A stretch of DNA of 62,987 nucleotides from contig PEWR01000139.1 of assembly GCA_002779395.1 (NCBI GenBank), positions 3,723-66,709 on the forward strand, written 5' to 3'. Shown here piece by piece: positions 15,662 through 24,244 of the stretch (its first letter is position 1; every line of letters begins with the position of its first letter). Made by a program: the position numbers and the translations under genes. The stretch is from Ignavibacteriales bacterium CG07_land_8_20_14_0_80_59_12. GTDB taxonomy: Bacteria; Bacteroidota; Ignavibacteria; 0-14-0-80-59-12. Below the pieces are notes generated by a model that worked only from the letters and a program-made list of their open reading frames with translations, ran no database searches and was not told the DNA's origin.

Positions 15662-16288
15662 ATGATGCGAACTCAATCGATCAAAGAGTTTCTTGGGAAC
15701 CTCTCATCCTCCTCTCCTGCACCGGGAGGCGGCAGTGTCGCTGCGCTCAGCGGTGCGCTTGCCGCGGGCCTCGTTGCGATGGTGTGCCGGCTCACGATCG
15801 GGAAGAAGAAGTATGCCGACGTGGAGGCCGACATGCTCGAGATACTCCCGCATGCAGAATCACTCCGCGAAGAGTTCCTCCAGCTTGCAGATGAGGACAC
15901 TGACGCATTCAACGAGGTGATGCGCGCCTACGGGATGCCAAAGGAGACCGATGCGGAAAAGCAGGTCCGGGGCGAGGCAATTCAAAAGGCGATGCATGTC
16001 GCAGCCGACGTACCATACGAAGTCCTCGAGATGTGCCGCGAAGGGCTGGAGTTGAGCCGCGAAGTCGCTTCGAAGGGAAACACCAACTCAATCAGCGATG
16101 CCGGCGTGAGTGCCCTCATGTTCTACGCCGCGGCGTTCAGTGCGGCTCTCAATGTGCGGATCAATCTTGGCTCCTTCTCCGACCAGGAGGATGTCGCCCG
16201 CCGCAGTGAGAACGTACACGACATCATGTCCGTTGTGCAAGACCTCCGCGACGGAGTGCTCACCATCGTCGAGTCCAAGCTCGGTTGA
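15662..16288 (+). CDS. formimidoyl-/methenyl-tetrahydrofolate cyclodeaminase-cyclohydrolase family protein
   Basis: 208 aa from ATG at 15662, with a PAPGGGSVAALSGALAAGLVAMV motif. Confidence 0.85.
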   Translation: MMRTQSIKEFLGNLSSSSPAPGGGSVAALSGALAAGLVAMVCRLTIGKKKYADVEADMLEILPHAESLREEFLQLADEDTDAFNEVMRAYGMPKETDAEKQVRGEAIQKAMHVAADVPYEVLEMCREGLELSREVASKGNTNSISDAGVSALMFYAAAFSAALNVRINLGSFSDQEDVARRSENVHDIMSVVQDLRDGVLTIVESKLG

Positions 16289-16559
16289 GAAAGAGGGAGA
16301 TCGCTCGGACGCTTGGCTATGACCGCAAAACCATTCGTCGCTACATTCGCATCGCGGTAGAGAAGGGACTCTCAAGAGAAGCACTGCTTCCGCCGCGGCA
16401 GGAGGTCGAGAGCTTTCCGTGGCGATCAAAGATGGCACGCGGGGAGAGAACACCCAAGGCTATAGACAGTTCAGAGAACCCTACCTCCCCGAGATCACAG
16501 CGCTGGTCAGCTCTGGGCGATCTCACCCTCAAGTGTCAAGACTGCCTTCGATGTCCTTT

Positions 16560-16590
16560 GCCAACGGCCCGCCATCGGCAGGCCAACGGC
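16560..16590. repeat. 22-bp unit repeat, locus 1 (about 1.4 units)
   Basis: GCCAACGGCCCGCCATCGGCAGGCCAACGGC. Removing 22 bp restores contiguous IstA-like coding (DVLCQRHDLTGTVSY). Confidence 0.9.
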
Positions 16591-16740
16591 ACGACCTAAC
16601 GGGCACGGTTAGCTATACCTCCTACAAGCGCTTCATCCGCGCACACAACATCGAGATCGATCCCGCACGCTCGACCTGCCGTCCGCCATGGGCGGATCGA
16701 CTACGGTCTCTTAGCCATACTGAGTGATCGGCTCTGACGG

Positions 16741-16766
16741 CAGGCCAACGGCCCGCCATCGGCAGG
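16741..16766. repeat. 22-bp unit repeat, locus 2
   Basis: CAGGCCAACGGCCCGCCATCGGCAGG, the exact 26-mer. Confidence 0.92.
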
Positions 16767-17271
16767 CGAAGTGTGTTCTACGCCTTCATCGGCACACTCT
16801 CCCACAGCCGGCTCAAGTATGTCGAACTCACATTCACCCAAAACCAAGGAGCTAGAGTCAACTCCCATATCCGGATGTTCTTTTTTCTTCGGCGGCGTAG
16901 AGAGAGCGCGTCGTGCAAAGATAACCTGAAGTCCGGTGTCTTACGTCCCGACATCTACTCTCCCCATGCTCTCTCCGGAGCTACCGTGAGATGGCCGAGC
17001 ACTACGGCTTGTTCATCGATCCGGCACGGCTTCTCTAGAAGCAGAAGCCAACAACCTTTCGTATGCTCTCGTTCCTCTCCATGCTCCTCACCGATGAGCT
17101 CGAGATGAGAATCAGCCGGAGAATCGTCCGCCTCAGGCGGACCGGTCAAAGGCCGCGAGATGACGCTCGAGTCATTCGATTTCGCCTTCAACCCCTCCAT
17201 CAACCCCAAGCGCATCAAGAGCCTGGCGAGCTGCCGCTTCATGGAGCGCGGCGAAGTTGTCTTCTTCCCTG

Positions 17272-17297
17272 CCTGCCGATGGCGGGCCGTTGGCCTG
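17272..17297. repeat. 22-bp unit repeat, locus 3 (inverted)
   Basis: CCTGCCGATGGCGGGCCGTTGGCCTG is the exact reverse complement of locus 2. It sits where the IstB Walker A would be. Confidence 0.92.
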
Positions 17298-17568
17298 TCG
17301 ATTGATGTTCTCGGTCGCCTTCTACCTGCCCGTCCGGTCAGGCGGGCAGCTTCCAACAGCTCTTTGCCGACCAAGACAGCGCAGACCTCCAGAACAAATT
17401 GCCTGTCGTGATGAAGCGGCTCCTCAAGGTCGATCTCCTCTTTTGTCGACGACTTCGGCTTCTCTGGCCACCAGACCAACTCTCAGCCGTCCGCCCTGGG
17501 CGGATTGGTCGATGGACGCTTCCGTTCCAAATCCATCATTCTCACGTCCAACCGTGCAATCACCGACT

Positions 17569-17593
17569 GGCCCGCCATCGGCGGGCAGGCCAG
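17569..17593. repeat. 22-bp unit repeat, locus 4 (degenerate)
   Basis: GGCCCGCCATCGGCGGGCAGGCCAG shares the GGCCCGCCATCGGC core. Confidence 0.7.
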
Positions 17594-17780
17594 GGCTCTT
17601 CCCCGATCCGGTGAAGAGCCAACGCCATCCTCGACCGCCTTGGCGCGCCTTGCACACACGAGCCACCAGATCGTTATCAAAGGTCAGTCGTACAGAAAAG
17701 AAAAAAACTTCAAGTTACATCAGACGAGGATTGACCGTATGACCACCAAGCGCTTCATCGTCTACCTTGCCACCGATATC

Positions 17781-17806
17781 CCTGCCGATGGCGGGCCGTT
17801 GGCCTG
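17781..17806. repeat. 22-bp unit repeat, locus 5 (inverted)
   Basis: CCTGCCGATGGCGGGCCGTTGGCCTG, the exact 26-mer, located just before the GC drop. Confidence 0.92.
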
Positions 17807-17810
17807 CTAC

Positions 17811-17839
17811 TTGACAAGCGGCAAAGGACTTCGTATACT
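17811..17839 (+). promoter_or_regulatory. sigma70-like promoter (TTGACA-17 nt-TATACT) facing the AT-rich island
   Basis: Exact TTGACA at 17811-17816, a 17-nt spacer, and TATACT at 17834-17839. The first island ATG is about 280 nt downstream. Confidence 0.4.
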
Positions 17840-18123
17840 ATCAATCATAAGTGCAGCAGGTGGGGAAATACTTTTGGCCCACCTGGGGGAATATGATGGC
17901 CATTGACACAAAAAACCCTTTGGTGCGTAACATCAGCGGTCATGAATCCGGGATTCACCACCCCGGATGAAAATTGGCAGCGCGAGTCGTACATTGCAAC
18001 CAACCACGTGTCCATGGTATTTTCATAGCAGTTATTATAACGCAAAAGAGTGACAGGTTGCCAAGAAACTAAGTTCGATCCTGGTCGGGAGTCGGTAGTG
18101 GAAACTACTAGTTTCTGAAGGAC

Positions 18124-18694
18124 ATGGAGATGAGGTCACCGATAGCAAAATTTACGGGTAAGAAGAAGGCAGCGGCGGCTGTTCTTGTTGTTTTCATTGC
18201 AGTCCCGCTTTTACTGCTGGTTTATCTTCATAGTAAGTTAGATGTCGAATCCTTCCCGTTGGGGAAAGCCCCTTCCCTCCTTGAAGCTCGTTGCGACCGA
18301 CGGTAGACAATCCTCGATCAGTGATTACAAAGGCTCAAAGTTAGTTCTGATGTTTTTCAAGGTTGAATGTCCTCATTGCCAGAGAACTTTAGGGATATTC
18401 AAAAGCTTGTGCGAATACTACTCTACGCAACACTTCAAGATGATCGCCATTTCCTTGAGTTCTCCAGAGGAGACAAGTAAATTTACATCTGAAAATGCAT
18501 TCCCTTTTCCCATCGTTTTAGCAAGTTATGATAAGGTGAAGAGAGAATACGGCATCTCAGCGCTTCCGGCAGTGTTTTTCGTAAACGAGAGTATGGTGGT
18601 TATCCATAGAGTATTTGGTGAAATGTCTGCCGCTAATTGGAAATCCATATTTGATGATTCTCTTTCAGAAAAGCCGCAAGAACAAAGGAAATAA
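18124..18694 (+). CDS. membrane-anchored TlpA/ResA/MauD-like thioredoxin-fold oxidoreductase (CPHC), apparent frameshift
   Basis: The anchor ORF at 18124-18306 (KKKAAAAVLVVFIAVPLLLLVYL...PLGKAPSL) and the catalytic ORF at 18242-18694 (LKLVATDGRQSSISDYKGSKLVLMFFKVECPHCQ) are in different frames. They would join with a 1-nt correction near the C-run at 18269-18285. Confidence 0.7.
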
Positions 18695-18698
18695 AAAA

Positions 18699-19250
18699 GT
18701 GAAAGAAATATTTAGCGGTCGGAGAAGAATTATAGCGGCAGCCGGACTCGCATCAATTGTTGTATTCATTTCCGCTGTAATTGGCATGATTTATATTTGG
18801 GATTCTCCAACCGCGCTTCGGAAGTTTGAGGCATGGCGAACTGGAGCAACGTATCTTGGAGATAGCGGAGTGGTCATTCAAGAAAGGTACAACGACTGTG
18901 GTCCTGCAGCATTGAAGATGGTATTTGACCATTACAACATCCACGTGGCTTTGATTGAAATTGAAAAAAGTGTCCATCTGACCAGGAAGGGATCCAGCAT
19001 CCTATCTCTCAAGGATATGGCAGAGAAGGAGGCACTCGGTGCTGAGGGTTGGAGGCTGTCACCGGAAGATTTCTACAAGGCTGCAAAGCCCCTCATCGCG
19101 TTTGTGCGTGGAGATCATTTTGTAGTAATCGACAGCATTACTTCAGATGGAACTGTTCACATTCGCGATCCGGCAATAGGAAAACTGAGGATGAGCCAGA
19201 ACAATTTTTTGAAAATATGGAAAGGTGAAACATTGGTATTTCGCAGATAA
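18699..19250 (+). CDS. stand-alone membrane-anchored peptidase C39 (bacteriocin-processing type)
   Basis: QERYNDCGPAALKMV (Gln and Cys with the spacing seen in ComA/LagD-type C39 domains), HFVVI (His) and IRDPA (Asp). One N-terminal TM preceded by RRR. The likely start is GTG at 18699, after the upstream stop. Confidence 0.8.
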   Translation: MKEIFSGRRRIIAAAGLASIVVFISAVIGMIYIWDSPTALRKFEAWRTGATYLGDSGVVIQERYNDCGPAALKMVFDHYNIHVALIEIEKSVHLTRKGSSILSLKDMAEKEALGAEGWRLSPEDFYKAAKPLIAFVRGDHFVVIDSITSDGTVHIRDPAIGKLRMSQNNFLKIWKGETLVFRR

Positions 19251-19454
19251 ATGCCGAGAGTTTGCGCGCAAAGACAGGTGCACGTCACGTCCGGATGTGC
19301 AACCAAATATCTTGCTCGCCGGTCTGCTTTCTGCGGAGGAGGAGATGACATTTCGGCTGGCTCCACGAATGTTATTTCCAATTTCGCAAGTAAAGCAGAC
19401 GGAGCCCGGCGGGCAAGAAGGTTAAACGGACGAAAATGATAGGAGGATTATGCT

Positions 19455-19742
19455 ATGAAGAAAGTAGCTTTAGTTATCTTGGCCCTGGCATTAGTCTTGA
19501 CTAGTGTGGCGTCATCGGGGGTGGCGCGAAACGAGACGATGCAATCGTATCAACTTAGCGCAGGACAACTGTCTTACGCTGTTGGCGGTACTGTATTGGG
19601 ATGCGTCGCCGGAATTGCTGGGGGCGTGGCCACTGTAGCATGCTTTGGAGGCGCATCTACCCCTATAACCTTCTGGGCAGTCCTTGGGTGCTCGGCGTTG
19701 GGAGTCGCCTCTATTGCGACAATCATAGACCAATGTTTTTAG
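19455..19742 (+). CDS. 95-aa Gly/Ala-rich 4-Cys peptide precursor (Sec-like signal plus double-glycine-leader-like motif)
   Basis: AGGAGG lies 8 nt before the ATG. Signal-like MKKVALVILALALVLTSVASS, then MQSYQLSAGQLSYAVGG, then a 50-aa tail TVLGCVAGIAGGVATVAC...IIDQCF. A terminator hairpin follows directly downstream. Confidence 0.7.
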   Translation: MKKVALVILALALVLTSVASSGVARNETMQSYQLSAGQLSYAVGGTVLGCVAGIAGGVATVACFGGASTPITFWAVLGCSALGVASIATIIDQCF

Positions 19743-19762
19743 GTCAATGTTAATGTCCTGAA

Positions 19763-19806
19763 GGGTGCATCCCATGTGTAAACGTGGGATGCACTCCATT
19801 TTCTGA
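19763..19806 (+). terminator. rho-independent-type terminator after the peptide gene
   Basis: The perfect 10-bp stem GTGCATCCCA/TGGGATGCAC (19765-19774 / 19785-19794) is extendable by 2 pairs. It has a 10-nt loop and is followed by TCCATTTTCT. Confidence 0.65.
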
Positions 19807-19851
19807 GAAGTTCGATTCGCAAGGAACTTATGACTCAATGTAGGTGCTCCG

Positions 19852-20616
19852 TTGGATTCAGATATAATATGCAAAACCAACCTTATAATCTCTTTCCGAC
19901 AGGGAAGGCGTGCCCTGTCTTTGTTCTTGCTCTTATTTGAAGCCTTTTCCCTTTCATTAGTTCTTGGTATCGCTCTGATTTCCGCGAAAGTTAGAATACT
20001 GCCTGAGAATAGTCAACTAATTGATCTTAGTATCTGGTGCTTGTTCATTTTTGAGTTTTTTCAGGCGAACGCTAAATCGAAGCCAAGCAATTTTTTTGCA
20101 AGAGGCGCGTTTTCAATCTTTCCAATTAGTCGGTTTGGTGTATTTCTATTGAGGCTCTTCCTTTTTATTACGGATTATAGATGGATACTTTATGCTCTTC
20201 CGCTGGTAATGTTTGTTGCATACTTTCTAATTGGTGGAAAGTTAGTCATGGCGTTTGGAGCCATTTTCGTGTATTCCATTGCGTACATATGGATGTCTGT
20301 GGTATTCTTGACTATACTCCTTTTTCTTAAGACCTTGTTTGCTCGTTTTGGCGAAGTGAATGCAAGTATAGTTGTCGCATTTTTCTCTATCCTTCTTTTT
20401 TCTCTTATCATAAATACCAGATTTCTTCCGTATTTTACTGGCTCTCCTTTACTGGTGTTGATTCGGGACGCTTTGTCATGTTTATGCATAGGCAATCTAA
20501 ATTGTTCAATCGGTTACGCTTTTGATATGTTGGTGTTTCTATTTGCAGGTGGTCTTATGGTCTTTCTCATCAGCAAGATTCGGTTGCCTTTTGGGAGGCG
20601 CATTGTTATTGATTAA
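19852..20616 (+). CDS. polytopic membrane protein (about 7 TM), putative permease/immunity component
   Basis: AT-rich ORF of 254 aa, very hydrophobic. TTG start, uncertain. No recognisable family motif. Confidence 0.55.
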   Translation: MDSDIICKTNLIISFRQGRRALSLFLLLFEAFSLSLVLGIALISAKVRILPENSQLIDLSIWCLFIFEFFQANAKSKPSNFFARGAFSIFPISRFGVFLLRLFLFITDYRWILYALPLVMFVAYFLIGGKLVMAFGAIFVYSIAYIWMSVVFLTILLFLKTLFARFGEVNASIVVAFFSILLFSLIINTRFLPYFTGSPLLVLIRDALSCLCIGNLNCSIGYAFDMLVFLFAGGLMVFLISKIRLPFGRRIVID

Positions 20617-21265
20617 GTTAATATGTATTGATTTGAAAATTCTTGTACGAGAGGAAAAACTGTTGTTGAGTATTGTTGTAATTCCTCTGTTCGTAGTCGT
20701 GGCGGACATACTCTTCAAGAAGACATCCAATTTTGCTTTGGGAGCTGGCCTACCTTTTGTTCTTATGGTGACGATGGTTTTTGGAACCATTTTTCGGGCT
20801 CTCTATACTGGGTATGGGCTGCACATGAACACCATGCTTGTATTTCCCTTATCCTCAATTGAAGTTGTTATCATCAAGAATCTCTCGAGTACTTGTGCGC
20901 TGGTACTTTCTAATTTATGGATTTCTATGTTCGCGTGGGTTTACCTTCGCTTCACTGCAGATACCATCCTCTCAGGTTTACTTTTTTCTGTTTATCTTCC
21001 CATAGTCCTCATTGAAGTCTACAACTTGCTTGGGTTCTGGATTGGTAACCCATCACGCCACGCTGGACTGTGGCTACTCTTGGTTGCAATGTTGCTTTCC
21101 ACTGCTAGTGGTATCTTTTTCTTATGCCAAATGTGGGGCTTTGGGCCGGTTGTAGCACTTACAGGAACCACCGTGTGCGCGTTCTGGCTTTCGCTCCGCT
21201 TCTGGGCTTTAATGTTTAGCAAGAAGAAATTTTGGTTGTTGCAAGAAGCGGAGAGTGGCGAATGA
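20522..21265 (+). CDS. polytopic membrane protein (about 6-7 TM), putative permease/immunity component
   Basis: 247-aa ORF overlapping the previous one by 95 nt; the true start is probably near 20610-20640, or the pair is frameshifted. Its stop overlaps the ATPase ATG (ATGA). Confidence 0.55.
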   Translation: MICWCFYLQVVLWSFSSARFGCLLGGALLLIKLICIDLKILVREEKLLLSIVVIPLFVVVADILFKKTSNFALGAGLPFVLMVTMVFGTIFRALYTGYGLHMNTMLVFPLSSIEVVIIKNLSSTCALVLSNLWISMFAWVYLRFTADTILSGLLFSVYLPIVLIEVYNLLGFWIGNPSRHAGLWLLLVAMLLSTASGIFFLCQMWGFGPVVALTGTTVCAFWLSLRFWALMFSKKKFWLLQEAESGE

Positions 21266-22047
21266 ATTGTATCGAGATCAAAAGACTAAGGAAGACATAC
21301 AAGAAAAATGTTGTTGCACTATGGAATCTCGACCTTAATGTGCCAGCTGGGTGCATCTTTGGTTTTGTCGGTCCAAATGGGGCCGGTAAATCAACCACGA
21401 TAAACATTATGGCTGGCATTATACCCAGAGATTCTGGTGAGATATTCATACTCGGGGGGGAAATAGATGAAGATGATTACAAGTACAAGCGGAATGTCGG
21501 ATTCATTCTCGAAAAGCCTCACTTTATTGAGAAGCTTACGGCGAAGGAATACTTAGAATTTGTCGCAACAATGTACAAAATCGATAAGGTCGAAACTCAA
21601 AAACGTGTCAATGAGCTGTTGGAATTCTTCGAACTTGAAGAAAAGCGCAACGACTGGATTGAAACCTATTCAGCTGGCATGAAGAAGAAAGTTTCCCTTG
21701 CTGCCGCAACAATTCACAACCCCAAATTGTTAATCCTCGATGAACCATTGGAAGGAATTGACCCTGTGTCTGCGAAAGACATCAAGGATATGCTCAAGAT
21801 GATGAAAGAAAAGGGTACAACGATTTTTCTAAGTTCCCATAATCTTGATATGGTTGAGAAGCTTTGTGAAGAGGTAGCCATCATGAACAAGGGGAAAATC
21901 GTTTTCCAAAGCAAGACAAAGGACATAAGAAAGAAGCTTAAAGACGAGGTAAGTCAGGAGACATATTCTTCACTTGAAGAGATTTTTATAGATATTGTTT
22001 CAGAAGAGAATCAGGAGAATAGGAAGAAGGCGCTTTCATGGTTGTAA
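21262..22047 (+). CDS. ABC transporter ATP-binding protein (ABC-2/DrrA-like)
   Basis: Walker A GPNGAGKST, signature YSAGMKKKVSLA, Walker B LLILDEP and H-loop SSHNL. Confidence 0.9.
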   Translation: MNCIEIKRLRKTYKKNVVALWNLDLNVPAGCIFGFVGPNGAGKSTTINIMAGIIPRDSGEIFILGGEIDEDDYKYKRNVGFILEKPHFIEKLTAKEYLEFVATMYKIDKVETQKRVNELLEFFELEEKRNDWIETYSAGMKKKVSLAAATIHNPKLLILDEPLEGIDPVSAKDIKDMLKMMKEKGTTIFLSSHNLDMVEKLCEEVAIMNKGKIVFQSKTKDIRKKLKDEVSQETYSSLEEIFIDIVSEENQENRKKALSWL

Positions 22048-22751
22048 GTTTCGAAAATCTTTTCCTGGTCATTAGTAGTCCTCCTAAAGCTTTCAGGAAC
22101 TTGAGGGAACAACCCAAGTGGCTTGTCGCTTTTTTGTTTATCTCATTTCTTTCCATTATCGCTGCTTGGAGGCTCATCCCTTTTTCAGAACAACTAAGTT
22201 ATCAAATCCTTGCACAGCGGTTGGGTGAAGAACAAGCGGGACAAGCAATCAGTATGGTCGAACGTCTTAAATACATTGAAGTAGCATTCGTACCAATTGG
22301 GCTCCTCCTTCGGTGGCTGGTTCTTACTGCCGTACTTTACTTTGCATCAATATTGTTGAGTGCACCAGATGAATTGAAGTTCAAGTCGGTTTATTCGCTC
22401 GTAGTTCACTCCGAAACAATTTTGGTATTGGCGGGGCTTCTAAACGTCATCATACTCAACTTAAAAGGTGTCTATTCTATTCATGCTCCTGCAGACTTGC
22501 AAGCTATTGTCGGTCTTGATTTCTTCCTTAAGAATAGAGCCTCCAATCTTTCACTTTTCACGCTCCTTAACGCCATCAACGTTTTCAATATCTGGTACAT
22601 CGCGGTCCTTACTATCGGCATTTCTGTCGCCACCGGCTTCAAGAAATTTAAGTCAGCCATTTTGGTAACGACTGTCTGGCTTTTAGGCGTAGGCTTCCAT
22701 GTCGCGCTAACCGCAATATCGAGCAATTCGCCATTGGGATTGGGCAATTAA
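22038..22751 (+). CDS. Yip1-domain-like membrane protein
   Basis: 237 aa, about 5 TM. The N-terminal FENLFLVISSPPKAFRNLREQPKWLVAFLF resembles Yip1/DUF1282-type proteins. Overlaps the ATPase stop by 10 nt. Confidence 0.55.
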   Translation: MVVSFENLFLVISSPPKAFRNLREQPKWLVAFLFISFLSIIAAWRLIPFSEQLSYQILAQRLGEEQAGQAISMVERLKYIEVAFVPIGLLLRWLVLTAVLYFASILLSAPDELKFKSVYSLVVHSETILVLAGLLNVIILNLKGVYSIHAPADLQAIVGLDFFLKNRASNLSLFTLLNAINVFNIWYIAVLTIGISVATGFKKFKSAILVTTVWLLGVGFHVALTAISSNSPLGLGN

Positions 22752-22933
22752 CACAAAACCATTGACTAAAATGTCATTCTCCTTTGCTGCCAACGGTGAA
22801 ACGATGAACCACTGCCAAGCGTAGGCTTGCGAGGACGCGCGGTCTTGCAAGCGGCGTTGACAGACTTCTGCCGATAAACAAGTATGGATCGTTCACAACA
22901 ATAAGTAGTGGTATTTGATGAACCTCTATTTAA

Positions 22934-23125
22934 TTGAACGCCAAAGATATCATCTTCGCTGCTCTTCGCATTCTAATTGGCTTGCTGTACGCAGGCACAG
23001 GGTTGTCCAAAGCCATCTCCTTTGAACAATTCCTAACGGACATTTGGACTTACCAGATTGTTTCGCCTTCCATTGTTTCTGTTTCCGCCGTTATTATTGT
23101 GATTCTTGTCTGTAGTATCTTCTGA
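22934..23125 (+). pseudogene. truncated MauE/DoxX-like gene fragment (AT-rich)
   Basis: 63 codons. RILIGLLYAGTGLSKAISFEQFLTDIWTYQIVS aligns with RIALGITFVVASIDKIADPGAFAQSILNYKLVS of the full-length gene at 23750-24244. It ends after about 1.5 TM. Confidence 0.6.
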
Positions 23126-23142
23126 TTCTGAGTCTTCTCGTG

Positions 23143-23172
23143 CAACATGGCCCGCCTTAGCGGGCCATGTTG
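23143..23172. other. perfect 13-bp inverted repeat at the island/GC boundary
   Basis: CAACATGGCCCGC-CTTA-GCGGGCCATGTTG, with no following T-tract. Confidence 0.85.
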
Positions 23173-23236
23173 TGTCGTGCGCCCGACAGGGAGCGCTCCC
23201 TCCGTGCCGATTCCGCTGTGCCGTCTTGCTGTCCAC

Positions 23237-23265
23237 TTGACAACATGAACGGTTTTCCGTAAACT
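23237..23265 (+). promoter_or_regulatory. sigma70-like promoter (TTGACA-17 nt-TAAACT) upstream of the rhodanese gene
   Basis: TTGACA at 23237-23242, a 17-nt spacer, and TAAACT at 23260-23265. The ATG is at 23286 with GGAGG upstream. Confidence 0.35.
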
Positions 23266-23285
23266 TGCACTGGAAAACTGGAGGC

Positions 23286-23750
23286 ATGGTGTTGTCCTTT
23301 CGTGTGCCGCTGCGCGAAGCCGCAATGCTCGTTATTGCCGCGATCATCCTGGGCTTCGCCTACACCGGTTTCACAAAGCGAGCGTTGTTCGCACCGCCGC
23401 CCCAGGTGGCTGGGCACTCCACCTCCGCTCATGAGAACGCTTCTCCCTGGGTTGCCTACCAGGAGGCGCGACGACTCATGGATTCGCGTGCGGCTCTCTT
23501 CATCGATGCCCGCCCCGAAGCTGAGTTCCGGTTCGGCCACATCGAAGAAGCCGTGAACATCCCGTTTGATGAGTTCGAGAGCAAACGGGATATGCTCGCG
23601 AGCATTTCAAGGGACACACTCATTGTTACCTACTGTAGTGGTGTGGGATGCGATCTAGCCTCGATGCTCGCCTCTCGACTGAGGGACGACGGATTCAGGA
23701 ATGTGAAGACCTACATTGGAGGATGGAACGAGTGGAGCGCACACCAGTGA
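23286..23750 (+). CDS. membrane-anchored rhodanese-domain protein
   Basis: N-terminal TM (AAMLVIAAIILGFAY). Rhodanese core LFIDARPEAEFRFGHIEEAVNIP...VTYCSGVGCDLAS...GGWNEW. Confidence 0.8.
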   Translation: MVLSFRVPLREAAMLVIAAIILGFAYTGFTKRALFAPPPQVAGHSTSAHENASPWVAYQEARRLMDSRAALFIDARPEAEFRFGHIEEAVNIPFDEFESKRDMLASISRDTLIVTYCSGVGCDLASMLASRLRDDGFRNVKTYIGGWNEWSAHQ

Positions 23751-24244
23751 TGGAAAGACCGACGACTGAGGCGGACGGGTGGCTCCTCATCTCGCTCCTC
23801 GTTCTCATCGTCAGGATCGCCCTCGGCATCACGTTTGTTGTCGCAAGCATCGACAAGATTGCCGACCCGGGGGCCTTTGCGCAGTCCATCCTGAACTACA
23901 AGCTTGTCTCACTTGATGTTGCCCTCGTCATCGCGACCGTTCTTCCGTGGCTTGAGCTGCTCTGCGGCCTCGGGATTCTCGCCGGGGTCCTCATTCGCGG
24001 CAGCGCGCTGCTCCTCTTCGTCATGTTGGTCGTTTTCACGGCGTTAGTTGTTAGCGCGCTTGCCCGCGGACTTGACATCTCCTGCGGCTGCTTCACCTGG
24101 GACCCGACGGCTGACAGGATTGGCTTGTGGAAGATCGGCGAGAACGCACTGCTGGTCCTCGGTTCAGTGATCATCTTCTACGCGAAGAGCACGAGGTTCT
24201 CGCTGGAACACTACTTCAGGGTTTCATCCTCCGGGACTGGGTAG
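23750..24244 (+). CDS. MauE/DoxX-family redox-associated membrane protein
   Basis: 164 aa, 4 TM, with a terminal DISCGCF motif. ATG overlaps the rhodanese stop (GTGATGG). Confidence 0.75.
   Translation: MERPTTEADGWLLISLLVLIVRIALGITFVVASIDKIADPGAFAQSILNYKLVSLDVALVIATVLPWLELLCGLGILAGVLIRGSALLLFVMLVVFTALVVSALARGLDISCGCFTWDPTADRIGLWKIGENALLVLGSVIIFYAKSTRFSLEHYFRVSSSGTG

Follow-up and report, generated by a model that had tools for sequence, protein, structure and literature searches.

INTRODUCTION

Double-glycine leaders are classically cytoplasmic export tags, which are cut off by the N-terminal domain of a dedicated ATP-binding cassette (ABC) exporter. The present analysis concerns an open reading frame (ORF) of 95 amino acids (aa) in a stretch of 62,987 nt from contig PEWR01000139.1 (the window), in which such a leader appears to lie behind a Sec-type signal, directly downstream of a gene for a stand-alone C39 protease. 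It belongs to a variant of the double-glycine system that is widespread and apparently undescribed, in which export would come before removal of the leader.

The closest described systems are the double-glycine bacteriocins and microcins processed by peptidase-containing ABC transporters (PCAT) or by ABC transporters for maturation and secretion (AMS proteins), such as PCAT1, LahT, ComA and CvaB. Their leaders have GG at −2/−1 and hydrophobic residues at −4, −7 and −12, in common with the leader in the window, and the protease of the window is likewise a bona fide C39 enzyme with the Gln/Cys/His/Asp set. The core is also small, Gly-rich and Cys-containing with predicted disulfides, as in the class IIa microcins. 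The differences lie in the order of the parts. The leader in the window is internal, behind a Sec-type signal, and the protease stands alone as a single-pass membrane protein whose domain is predicted to be on the periplasmic side, whereas the C39 domain of a PCAT is the cytoplasmic N-terminal domain of the exporter. The ABC ATPase of the cassette is of the DrrA/ABC-2 type without a peptidase domain. With a stand-alone, outward-facing protease, cleavage would be uncoupled from ABC export. A 2023 review of the leader proteases of peptides that are made by ribosomes and modified after translation treats C39 only as a domain of PCATs (PMC10885120).

The bacteroidetocins, proposed as class IIf, are four-Cys toxins of the Bacteroidota with a double-glycine leader and a dedicated thiol oxidoreductase gene; an accessory multi-transmembrane protein is required for their activity, and their outer-membrane route is likewise an acknowledged gap (PMC6671954). 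Compared by description, the two systems share the lineage, the leader, the four Cys, the thiol oxidoreductase and a transmembrane protein. The bacteroidetocins differ in having a short N-terminal leader without a Sec signal and a C39–ABC fusion transporter, and the core in the window has no Lys or Arg. Three parts of a bacteroidetocin-type cluster are present in the window (the redoxin with a broken frame), with a stand-alone C39 protease and a DrrA-type ABC ATPase in place of C39–ABC.

A C39 enzyme outside the cytoplasm is exemplified by FapD of the Pseudomonas Fap amyloid system, which is active in the periplasm on Sec-exported substrates (PMC5557850); this location is thus workable for the fold. 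FapD lacks an N-terminal anchor and is made with a cleavable Sec signal, the Fap proteins lack canonical double-glycine leaders, and the substrate is left unresolved in that study (PMC5557850). Unlike FapD, the family described here has an obvious adjoining candidate substrate with a canonical leader. The protease of the window scores 41.5 bits with the FapD model NF058616 against a cut-off of 330, and there are no fap genes in the window.

Two further systems are alike in part. The glycocins sublancin and glycocin F have a double-glycine leader and thioredoxin-like genes, and their helix-loop-helix fold with two nested disulfides is the one predicted here; the CX6C...CX6C spacing is common to some members of our family, while the peptide in the window is CX12C...CX14C. 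The glycocins have no Sec signal and are exported by PCATs, and no glycosyltransferase domain was found among the ORFs of the genomic island that carries the cassette. SDP of Bacillus subtilis is a hydrophobic, disulfide-containing peptide toxin; its precursor is exported by Sec and then undergoes further extracellular proteolysis. The YknWXYZ ABC system, including the Yip1-type protein YknW, protects Bacillus against SDP toxin (PMC4887032), and the window encodes a YknW-like protein beside its ABC ATPase. The precursor and processing enzymes of SDP are unrelated, with no double-glycine leader or C39 protease, and Bacillus is monoderm.

RESULTS

The putative precursor peptide

The precursor is composed of three segments, preceded by a ribosome-binding site.

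19441–19446, + strand: Shine–Dalgarno sequence AGGAGG, 8 nt before the ATG at 19455, read directly
19455–19742, + strand: peptide ORF, 95 aa, from the sequence and its translation
19455–19517, + strand: Sec-type signal segment, residues 1–21, MKKVALVILALALVLTSVASS
19518–19589, + strand: double-glycine leader, residues 22–45 (24 aa), GVARNETMQSYQLSAGQLSYAVGG
19590–19742, + strand: core peptide, residues 46–95 (50 aa), and stop codon

A first-pass annotation of this DNA had read the ORF as a Sec-like signal stacked upon a double-glycine leader and a Gly-rich core with Cys; the ORF, its translation and every feature listed were found where that annotation had placed them. Residues 1–21 conform to a Sec/signal peptidase I (SPase I) signal as judged by a heuristic, with MKK at the start (a KK n-region), an h-region of ~12–17 residues (VALVILALALVL) and then small residues at −3/−1 (VAS or ASS). 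Counting back from the double glycine, formed by G44 and G45 (19584–19589), the leader has L at −12, S at −11, Q at −8, L at −7, A at −4 and G at −2 and −1, and thus hydrophobic residues at all three of the −4, −7 and −12 positions. A conventional leader of 15–30 aa occupies the extreme N-terminus with no other targeting signal; here the 21-aa signal-like segment precedes it. The core has no Lys or Arg and a single Asp, with 34% Gly plus Ala and a grand average of hydropathy (GRAVY) of 1.50. Its Cys residues are at positions 50, 63, 79 and 94, and its computed average mass of 4761.6 Da would fall to 4757.5 Da on formation of two disulfides.

A three-part filter was applied that required a signal-like N-terminus, GG at residues 25–75 and at least two Cys after the GG. 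The ORF at 19455–19742 is the only one to pass it in the 63-kb window on both strands.

The start codon bears upon whether the signal is translated. An internal Met29 (codon at 19539) lies at −17 from the cleavage site, and there is no Shine–Dalgarno sequence before it. In the two closest homologues, L015 and P0067, the position is occupied by Glu and Ala respectively, and both keep the signal segment. Since Met29 is not conserved and the signal is, the long form is the conserved product. The assignment of AGGAGG to the ATG at 19455 rather than to Met29, made in the first-pass annotation, thus agrees with both the placement of the ribosome-binding site and conservation. A three-codon out-of-frame mini-ORF (ATG CTA TGA, 19450–19458) lies between the Shine–Dalgarno sequence and the ATG, overlapping the start codon of the peptide, and is probably incidental.

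The stand-alone C39 protease

The gene directly upstream of the peptide encodes the protease.

18654–19250, + strand: stand-alone C39 cysteine protease (PF03412, 103.5 bits against a cut-off of 22); alternative starts at 18615 or 18618

The protein begins with a basic N-terminus, passes through one transmembrane segment and continues as the protease domain. The residues expected of peptidase C39 are all present, with the catalytic Gln76, Cys82, His155 and Asp172 invariant in 20 aligned homologues. By alignment, the solved structures closest to the domain are those of the double-glycine proteases LahT150 (6MPZ) and PCAT1 (4RY2). There are many homologues, of 175–235 aa. A scan of GTDB species representatives gave 201 confirmed relatives, and the best 80 loci were analysed. 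All are metagenome-assembled genomes (MAGs), from Bacteroidota, Ignavibacteria, Latescibacterota, Acidobacteriota (Thermoanaerobaculia, Holophagales and 'Ca. Multivorans'), Gemmatimonadota, Poribacteria and Aminicenantia.

The topology of the protease was judged from hydrophobicity and the positive-inside rule, with the catalytic Cys located by a loose motif. A single hydrophobic 17-mer lies ~34 residues before the catalytic Cys in 77 of the 80 protease ORFs. The N-terminal flank of this segment is more positive than the C-terminal flank in 71 of the 77 anchored proteases, with mean charges of +3.4 and +0.8. This bias is that of a protein with its N-terminus inside, so the protease domain is predicted to face the periplasm. 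All 80 ORFs end 117–226 residues after the catalytic Cys, and therefore none is fused to an ABC transporter. A protease facing outward would explain the need for a Sec signal on its substrate.

A family of divergent peptides

The neighbourhoods of two C39 homologues share the gene order and also a small ORF comprising MKK or MKR, a hydrophobic stretch, LxxIxGG and a Cys-rich hydrophobic core. Across the 80 loci 69 ORFs passed the three-part filter, and 64 of these are on the strand of the protease and within 2.5 kb downstream of it, a region that makes up 11.5% of the sequence searched. The combination of features thus goes beyond chance. The strict filter was passed in 57 of the 80 loci, and in ~8 others the cleavage site is GA or GS; both are known alternatives to GG. 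Twelve loci are empty, several of them with little or no sequence downstream. The layout proposed for the peptide in the window recurs in 63 non-redundant, highly divergent peptides beside homologous C39 genes, and this is strong comparative support for the stacked reading of the first-pass annotation.

All 63 carry an N-terminal signal. The leaders are conserved, with Leu or Met at −7 in 45 of the 63, Leu, Met, Val or Ile at −12 in 39, and Thr, Ala, Val, Ile or Leu at −4 in 57; the commonest residue at −8 is Glu. Hydrophobic residues at −4, −7 and −12 are known recognition determinants for C39 (PMC10885120). The hydrophobic span of the signal has a median of 15 residues, and SPase-I-like small residues at −3/−1 occur in 60 of 64 peptides. 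The distance from the SPase-like site to the GG has a median of 31 residues in the family and is 24 in the window, which is an ordinary length for a double-glycine leader.

The cores are hypervariable between loci. In the 63 peptides their median length is 44 aa and their net charge is mostly −2 to +1, so the lack of charge in the core, which had been raised as a caveat for a bacteriocin, is usual for the family and the concern is resolved. There are two Cys in 36 cores, four in 14 and five or six in nine, with the first at core position 4–6 and the last 0–5 residues from the C-terminus. The shortest cores, of 24–29 aa, have five or six Cys (e.g. KTGCGYVMGIGYCCLDLWIIQLCFCAYIG). In the Acidobacteriota loci L039, L049, L050, L070 and L076 two different peptides with signal, GG and Cys are encoded in tandem ~0.5–2 kb downstream of C39, an arrangement reminiscent of two-peptide or multi-variant bacteriocin loci.

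Searches with the peptide itself are almost blind to its relatives. A word-indexed homology search matched only the peptide, and the sole true relative in an exhaustive HMMER search of 1.84 billion representatives was P0067, a truncated sequence of 56% identity in which the signal and LSYVIGG are retained; the matches P0068 and P0069 were rejected as repeat-protein false positives. The closest full homologue is L015:4599–4892 (Bacteroidota MAG JBMFJZ010000020.1), which is 52% identical with all four Cys conserved. In the peptide at L018:6555–7039 there is a frame break between the signal and the leader and core, in a MAG of 2.6x coverage.

The peptide in the window stays below the cut-off of every Pfam and NCBIfam model (E up to 10). 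Likeness to the lactobin A/cerein 7B class IIb peptides had been proposed; TIGR03949 gives no match to the peptide at E up to 10, with scores of 12.4 and 13.4 bits in two relatives against a cut-off of 21.5, and membership of that class is not upheld. A search with profiles of double-glycine leaders had also been suggested in the first-pass annotation. TIGR01847 does not match the peptide in the window, and the best relative is just below threshold at 14.9 against 15.7 bits; TIGR04149, TIGR03949 and PF14406 are further genuine double-glycine leader models to which relatives come near threshold. A match to NF053514 (BLB8/JUQZ-1; E = 0.034) spans only residues 1–32, the signal segment, and was rejected as compositional. 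JUQZ-1 is a bacteriocin of Brevibacillus (PMC11747845). Weak matches to Ssp4, HblD and TMEM100 were dismissed as hydrophobic noise. Full-text literature searches found no description of the cassette, and no curated family for it was found.

Cysteine symmetry and the predicted fold of the core

In an antiparallel hairpin closed by nested disulfides, the positions of the four Cys should satisfy C1 + C4 = C2 + C3. Of 16 four-Cys cores, 12 show this symmetry to within two residues, nine of them exactly. Permutation gives an expected value of 3.5, and none of 20,000 trials reached 12, although related sequences are counted in this comparison and independence is therefore overstated. The spacings include CX6C...CX6C and CX10C...CX10C. 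Spacings of i/i+7 and i/i+11 place both Cys on one face of a helix. In the two-Cys cores the Cys are at both ends, spanning ~83% of the core.

A single-sequence AlphaFold2 (AF2) model has helices at residues 37–64 and 69–94 with a break at 65–68, with low confidence (predicted local distance difference test, pLDDT, 65). The core is thus predicted to fold as a helix-loop-helix with nested disulfides C50–C94 and C63–C79. The two disulfides suggested in the first-pass annotation gain support from the symmetric spacing.

The redoxin and the putative disulfide module

The gene preceding the protease encodes a thioredoxin-like protein, in two frames.

18124–18694, + strand: TlpA/ResA/MauD-like redoxin with CPHC, split into a transmembrane-anchor ORF (18124–18306) and a catalytic ORF (18242–18694)

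A +1 frame break near 18261–18272 (GGGGAAAGCCCC) places the anchor and the CPHC domain in different frames. Six independent metagenome assemblies carry the identical break; assembly error is excluded as its cause, and the break is thus real in the population, as a pseudogene or a split gene. Intact anchored redoxin homologues precede the C39 gene in 26 of the 80 loci. Of the 24 partner redoxins with CxxC, 23 have an N-terminal anchor ~61–66 residues before the motif, as is expected of extracytoplasmic TlpA/ResA-type proteins. The redoxin weakly matches the MauD model TIGR02661 (E = 1.5e-4). MauD and MauE are a pair needed for the disulfide-rich small subunit of methylamine dehydrogenase, and the redoxin with MauE/DoxX would be a parallel to them. 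The protease, the redoxin and the substrate are all predicted to meet outside the cytoplasm, which would explain why a Sec signal is stacked upon a double-glycine leader.

The low-GC island and its genes

The whole cassette is carried on an island at ~17.7–23.2 kb, where the GC content is 0.37–0.52 compared with ~0.60 elsewhere in the window, and every gene of the island is on the + strand. The remaining features of the island and its borders are as follows.

16285–17906, left island border, host-like GC: broken remnants of an IS21 insertion sequence, with an IstA-like helix-turn-helix fragment and two IstB fragments in different frames
19763–19796 (or to 19806), + strand: terminator- or attenuator-like hairpin with a 15-bp stem and T-rich tail, 21 nt after the peptide stop codon
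19852–20616, + strand: polytopic membrane protein 1, no family match
20609–21265, + strand: polytopic membrane protein 2, no family match
21262–22047, + strand: ABC transporter ATPase, DrrA/ABC-2 type, no peptidase domain
22038–22751, + strand: Yip1-domain, YknW-like membrane protein (PF04893, 57.5 bits)
22934–23125, + strand: truncated MauE-like fragment of 63 aa at the right island end (PF07291, 24.9 bits, under the cut-off of 27)
23286–23750, + strand: rhodanese, host GC, immediately after the island
23732–24244, + strand: full-length MauE/DoxX, host GC

The conserved order of the cassette is redoxin, C39, peptide, membrane proteins, ABC, Yip1, MauE. The hairpin 3′ of the peptide gene has a folding energy of −31.2 kcal/mol (z = −6.2), and none of 200 shuffled sequences folds as well. 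A scan for sigma-70 promoters was uninformative, with six sites against 8.6 expected; promoters in the Fibrobacterota–Chlorobiota–Bacteroidota (FCB) group differ from the sigma-70 consensus. The two membrane-protein ORFs correspond to one fused ORF of 511 aa in locus L018 (7151–8686), and membrane protein 1, or the fused counterpart, is a putative permease partner of the ABC ATPase. Homologues of the ATPase are downstream in 45 of the 80 loci, and of the Yip1/YknW-like protein in 41. The YknW family model NF052650 matches the Yip1 protein at 73.7 bits, under its cut-off of 110. Neither a membrane fusion protein nor a TolC partner was seen, and neither a dedicated immunity gene nor an outer-membrane exporter was identified.

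In loci L013, L014 and L018 the cassette is closed by a full-length MauE. The region of the rhodanese and MauE/DoxX genes beyond the island has a GC content of 0.56–0.60, and the island may have integrated or recombined at a MauE gene. The best of the named matches to the FabF protein of the host are in Candidatus Kryptoniota/Kryptonia (72–74% identity), followed by Ignavibacteria, Kapaibacteria and Bacteroidota, and the host is a diderm since an Omp85 gene is nearby. Horizontal transfer is the probable origin of the island, with a Bacteroidota/Ignavibacteria-like donor of lower GC content and a Kryptonia-like FCB host as the recipient. Six independent metagenome assemblies (L001–L006) are 100% identical to positions 17600–23400 of the window over 5.3–5.8 kb. 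These contigs span at least three projects (ENA ERZ2729xxxx, JGI 3300025022 and 3300004238, and SRA SRR6261447), and it seems that the samples repeatedly came from a single, very clonal population.

DISCUSSION

The proposed pathway begins with the N-terminal signal, which would direct the precursor to Sec and so to the periplasmic side of the inner membrane; there the signal is probably removed by signal peptidase. The remainder would be an ordinary-looking double-glycine precursor with a 24-aa leader and a 50-aa core. The anchored MauD/TlpA-like redoxin, with MauE/DoxX, may then form C50–C94 and C63–C79, as the Cys symmetry and the association of the genes suggest, so stapling the core into a helix-loop-helix hairpin. 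The C39 protease, anchored through a single N-terminal helix so that its catalytic domain would lie outside, would recognize the −12, −7 and −4 positions and cut after G44–G45; this step is consistent with sequence, synteny and topology. The released product would be a very hydrophobic, uncharged hairpin of ~4.76 kDa, and most likely a membrane-active antimicrobial. Least certain is the final step, in which the membrane proteins together with the ABC ATPase and the YknW-like Yip1 protein would clear the peptide from the membrane of the producer or help it out.

We regard the processing pathway as likely. For the antimicrobial role of the peptide the chances are about even; it is the best fit because hypervariable cores lie behind conserved leaders, peptides occur in tandem, and the ABC ATPase and YknW-like protein co-occur. 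The pathway and the role taken together are probable, with less assurance than the pathway by itself. The balance tips somewhat towards the peptide being the first recognized member of a phylum-spanning diderm pathway, in which Sec export would be followed by a periplasmic GG cut by a tethered C39 protease, with a MauD/MauE-like pair forming the disulfides. Candidate genes of the pathway occur in Bacteroidota, Ignavibacteria, Kryptonia-like lineages, Acidobacteriota, Latescibacterota and Gemmatimonadota, among other groups.

A number of observations weigh against this interpretation. From export and the two cleavages to the disulfides and any activity, every step is inferred, and the topology is drawn from hydrophobicity and the positive-inside rule. 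Counted by distinct Cys pattern the symmetry falls to seven of 10, since the 12 of 16 cores include related sequences, and the AF2 model is one of low confidence (pLDDT 65). The core is uncharged, unlike those of most characterized bacteriocins. The closest full homologue, L015, has G-E (ggc gag) rather than G-G at the cleavage site, a difference of one base; a dead copy, a tolerated variant and an error of assembly are all conceivable. All six assemblies have the frame break in the redoxin, and the MauE of the island is truncated, so that the copy in the window may be decaying, or may rely on the host MauE/DoxX and other oxidoreductases. At the tblastn threshold used, roughly half of all loci lack ABC and Yip1 and two thirds lack the redoxin, and no outer-membrane route is evident in the cassette.

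Other explanations differ in how much of the pathway they retain. The signal might not be cleaved, holding the precursor in the inner membrane with its C-terminus outside, so that a single C39 cut after the GG would free the core and leave signal and leader in the membrane. The mature product would be identical, and the meeting of protease and substrate would be favoured by tethering on the same membrane face; moreover, four of the 64 peptides have no obvious SPase site, and some have Pro directly after the h-region. We think this unlikely, as cleaved signals typically have a hydrophobic span like the median of 15 residues found here, which would be short in a stable anchor, and the small −3/−1 residues of the other 60 are at the right distance. 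A peptide that is exported and cut as proposed may also be a signalling peptide or a structural or self-assembling component of the envelope, with the periplasmic C39 protease acting like that of the Fap amyloid or the Fil pilus system. The protease has sub-threshold matches to FapD (NF058616, E = 9e-11) and FilB (NF050078, E = 8.5e-9), and FapD is a periplasmic C39 needed for the secretion of fibres (PMC5557850). An uncharged, Gly/Ala-rich core would suit such a function, as would a cassette in which neither a dedicated immunity gene nor an outer-membrane exporter was identified. Yet the scores are far below the cut-offs (41.5 against 330 bits for FapD and 35.2 against 475 for FilB), and no Fap- or Fil-like partner genes are present. 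Hypervariable cores with conserved leaders and some tandem peptides form a pattern typical of bacteriocins, and the DrrA-type ABC ATPase with a YknW-like protein in about half of the loci resembles self-protection against a peptide toxin (PMC4887032). A non-toxin function consequently seems improbable.

The two remaining explanations dispense with periplasmic processing altogether. The whole 95-aa protein has a GRAVY of 1.13 with three hydrophobic segments of ~20 residues each, and three helices appear in the AF2 model, so that it could be an ordinary small membrane protein that is never processed, beside a protease and with a GG that are there by coincidence. This is very improbable given that GG (or GA or GS) with canonical −4, −7 and −12 residues recurs in 63 divergent peptides, always beside a C39 gene. 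In addition the region between the signal and the GG is hydrophilic in the peptide of the window (GRAVY −0.25), and the 24–29-aa cores of the family are too short for two transmembrane helices. Translation from Met29 would instead give a conventional cytoplasmic precursor with a 17-aa leader, a length typical of double-glycine leaders, and the upstream 28 codons would be untranslated. The strong Shine–Dalgarno sequence is that of the ATG at 19455, with none in front of 19539, Met29 is replaced in L015 and P0067 where the signal is kept, and an N-terminal signal is found in all 63 members of the family. Furthermore the cassette has no C39–ABC exporter and its protease is predicted to face outward. 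Initiation at Met29 can hardly be credited.

If the proposed pathway is correct, it would reverse the textbook order, in which cytoplasmic cleavage at the double glycine is coupled to ABC export. Recognition of the leader by C39 would have been put to new use in periplasmic maturation, independently of transport. The uncharacterized extracytoplasmic class of C39 proteases would gain its first clear substrates, that of FapD having been left unresolved (PMC5557850). Genome-mining tools would miss the family, as they seek N-terminal double-glycine leaders beside PCATs and discard proteins with signal peptides. The family would add hundreds of hypervariable, disulfide-stapled hydrophobic candidate antimicrobials from uncultivated phyla, and its signal, leader and protease would provide a compact, portable module for the release of peptides in the periplasm.

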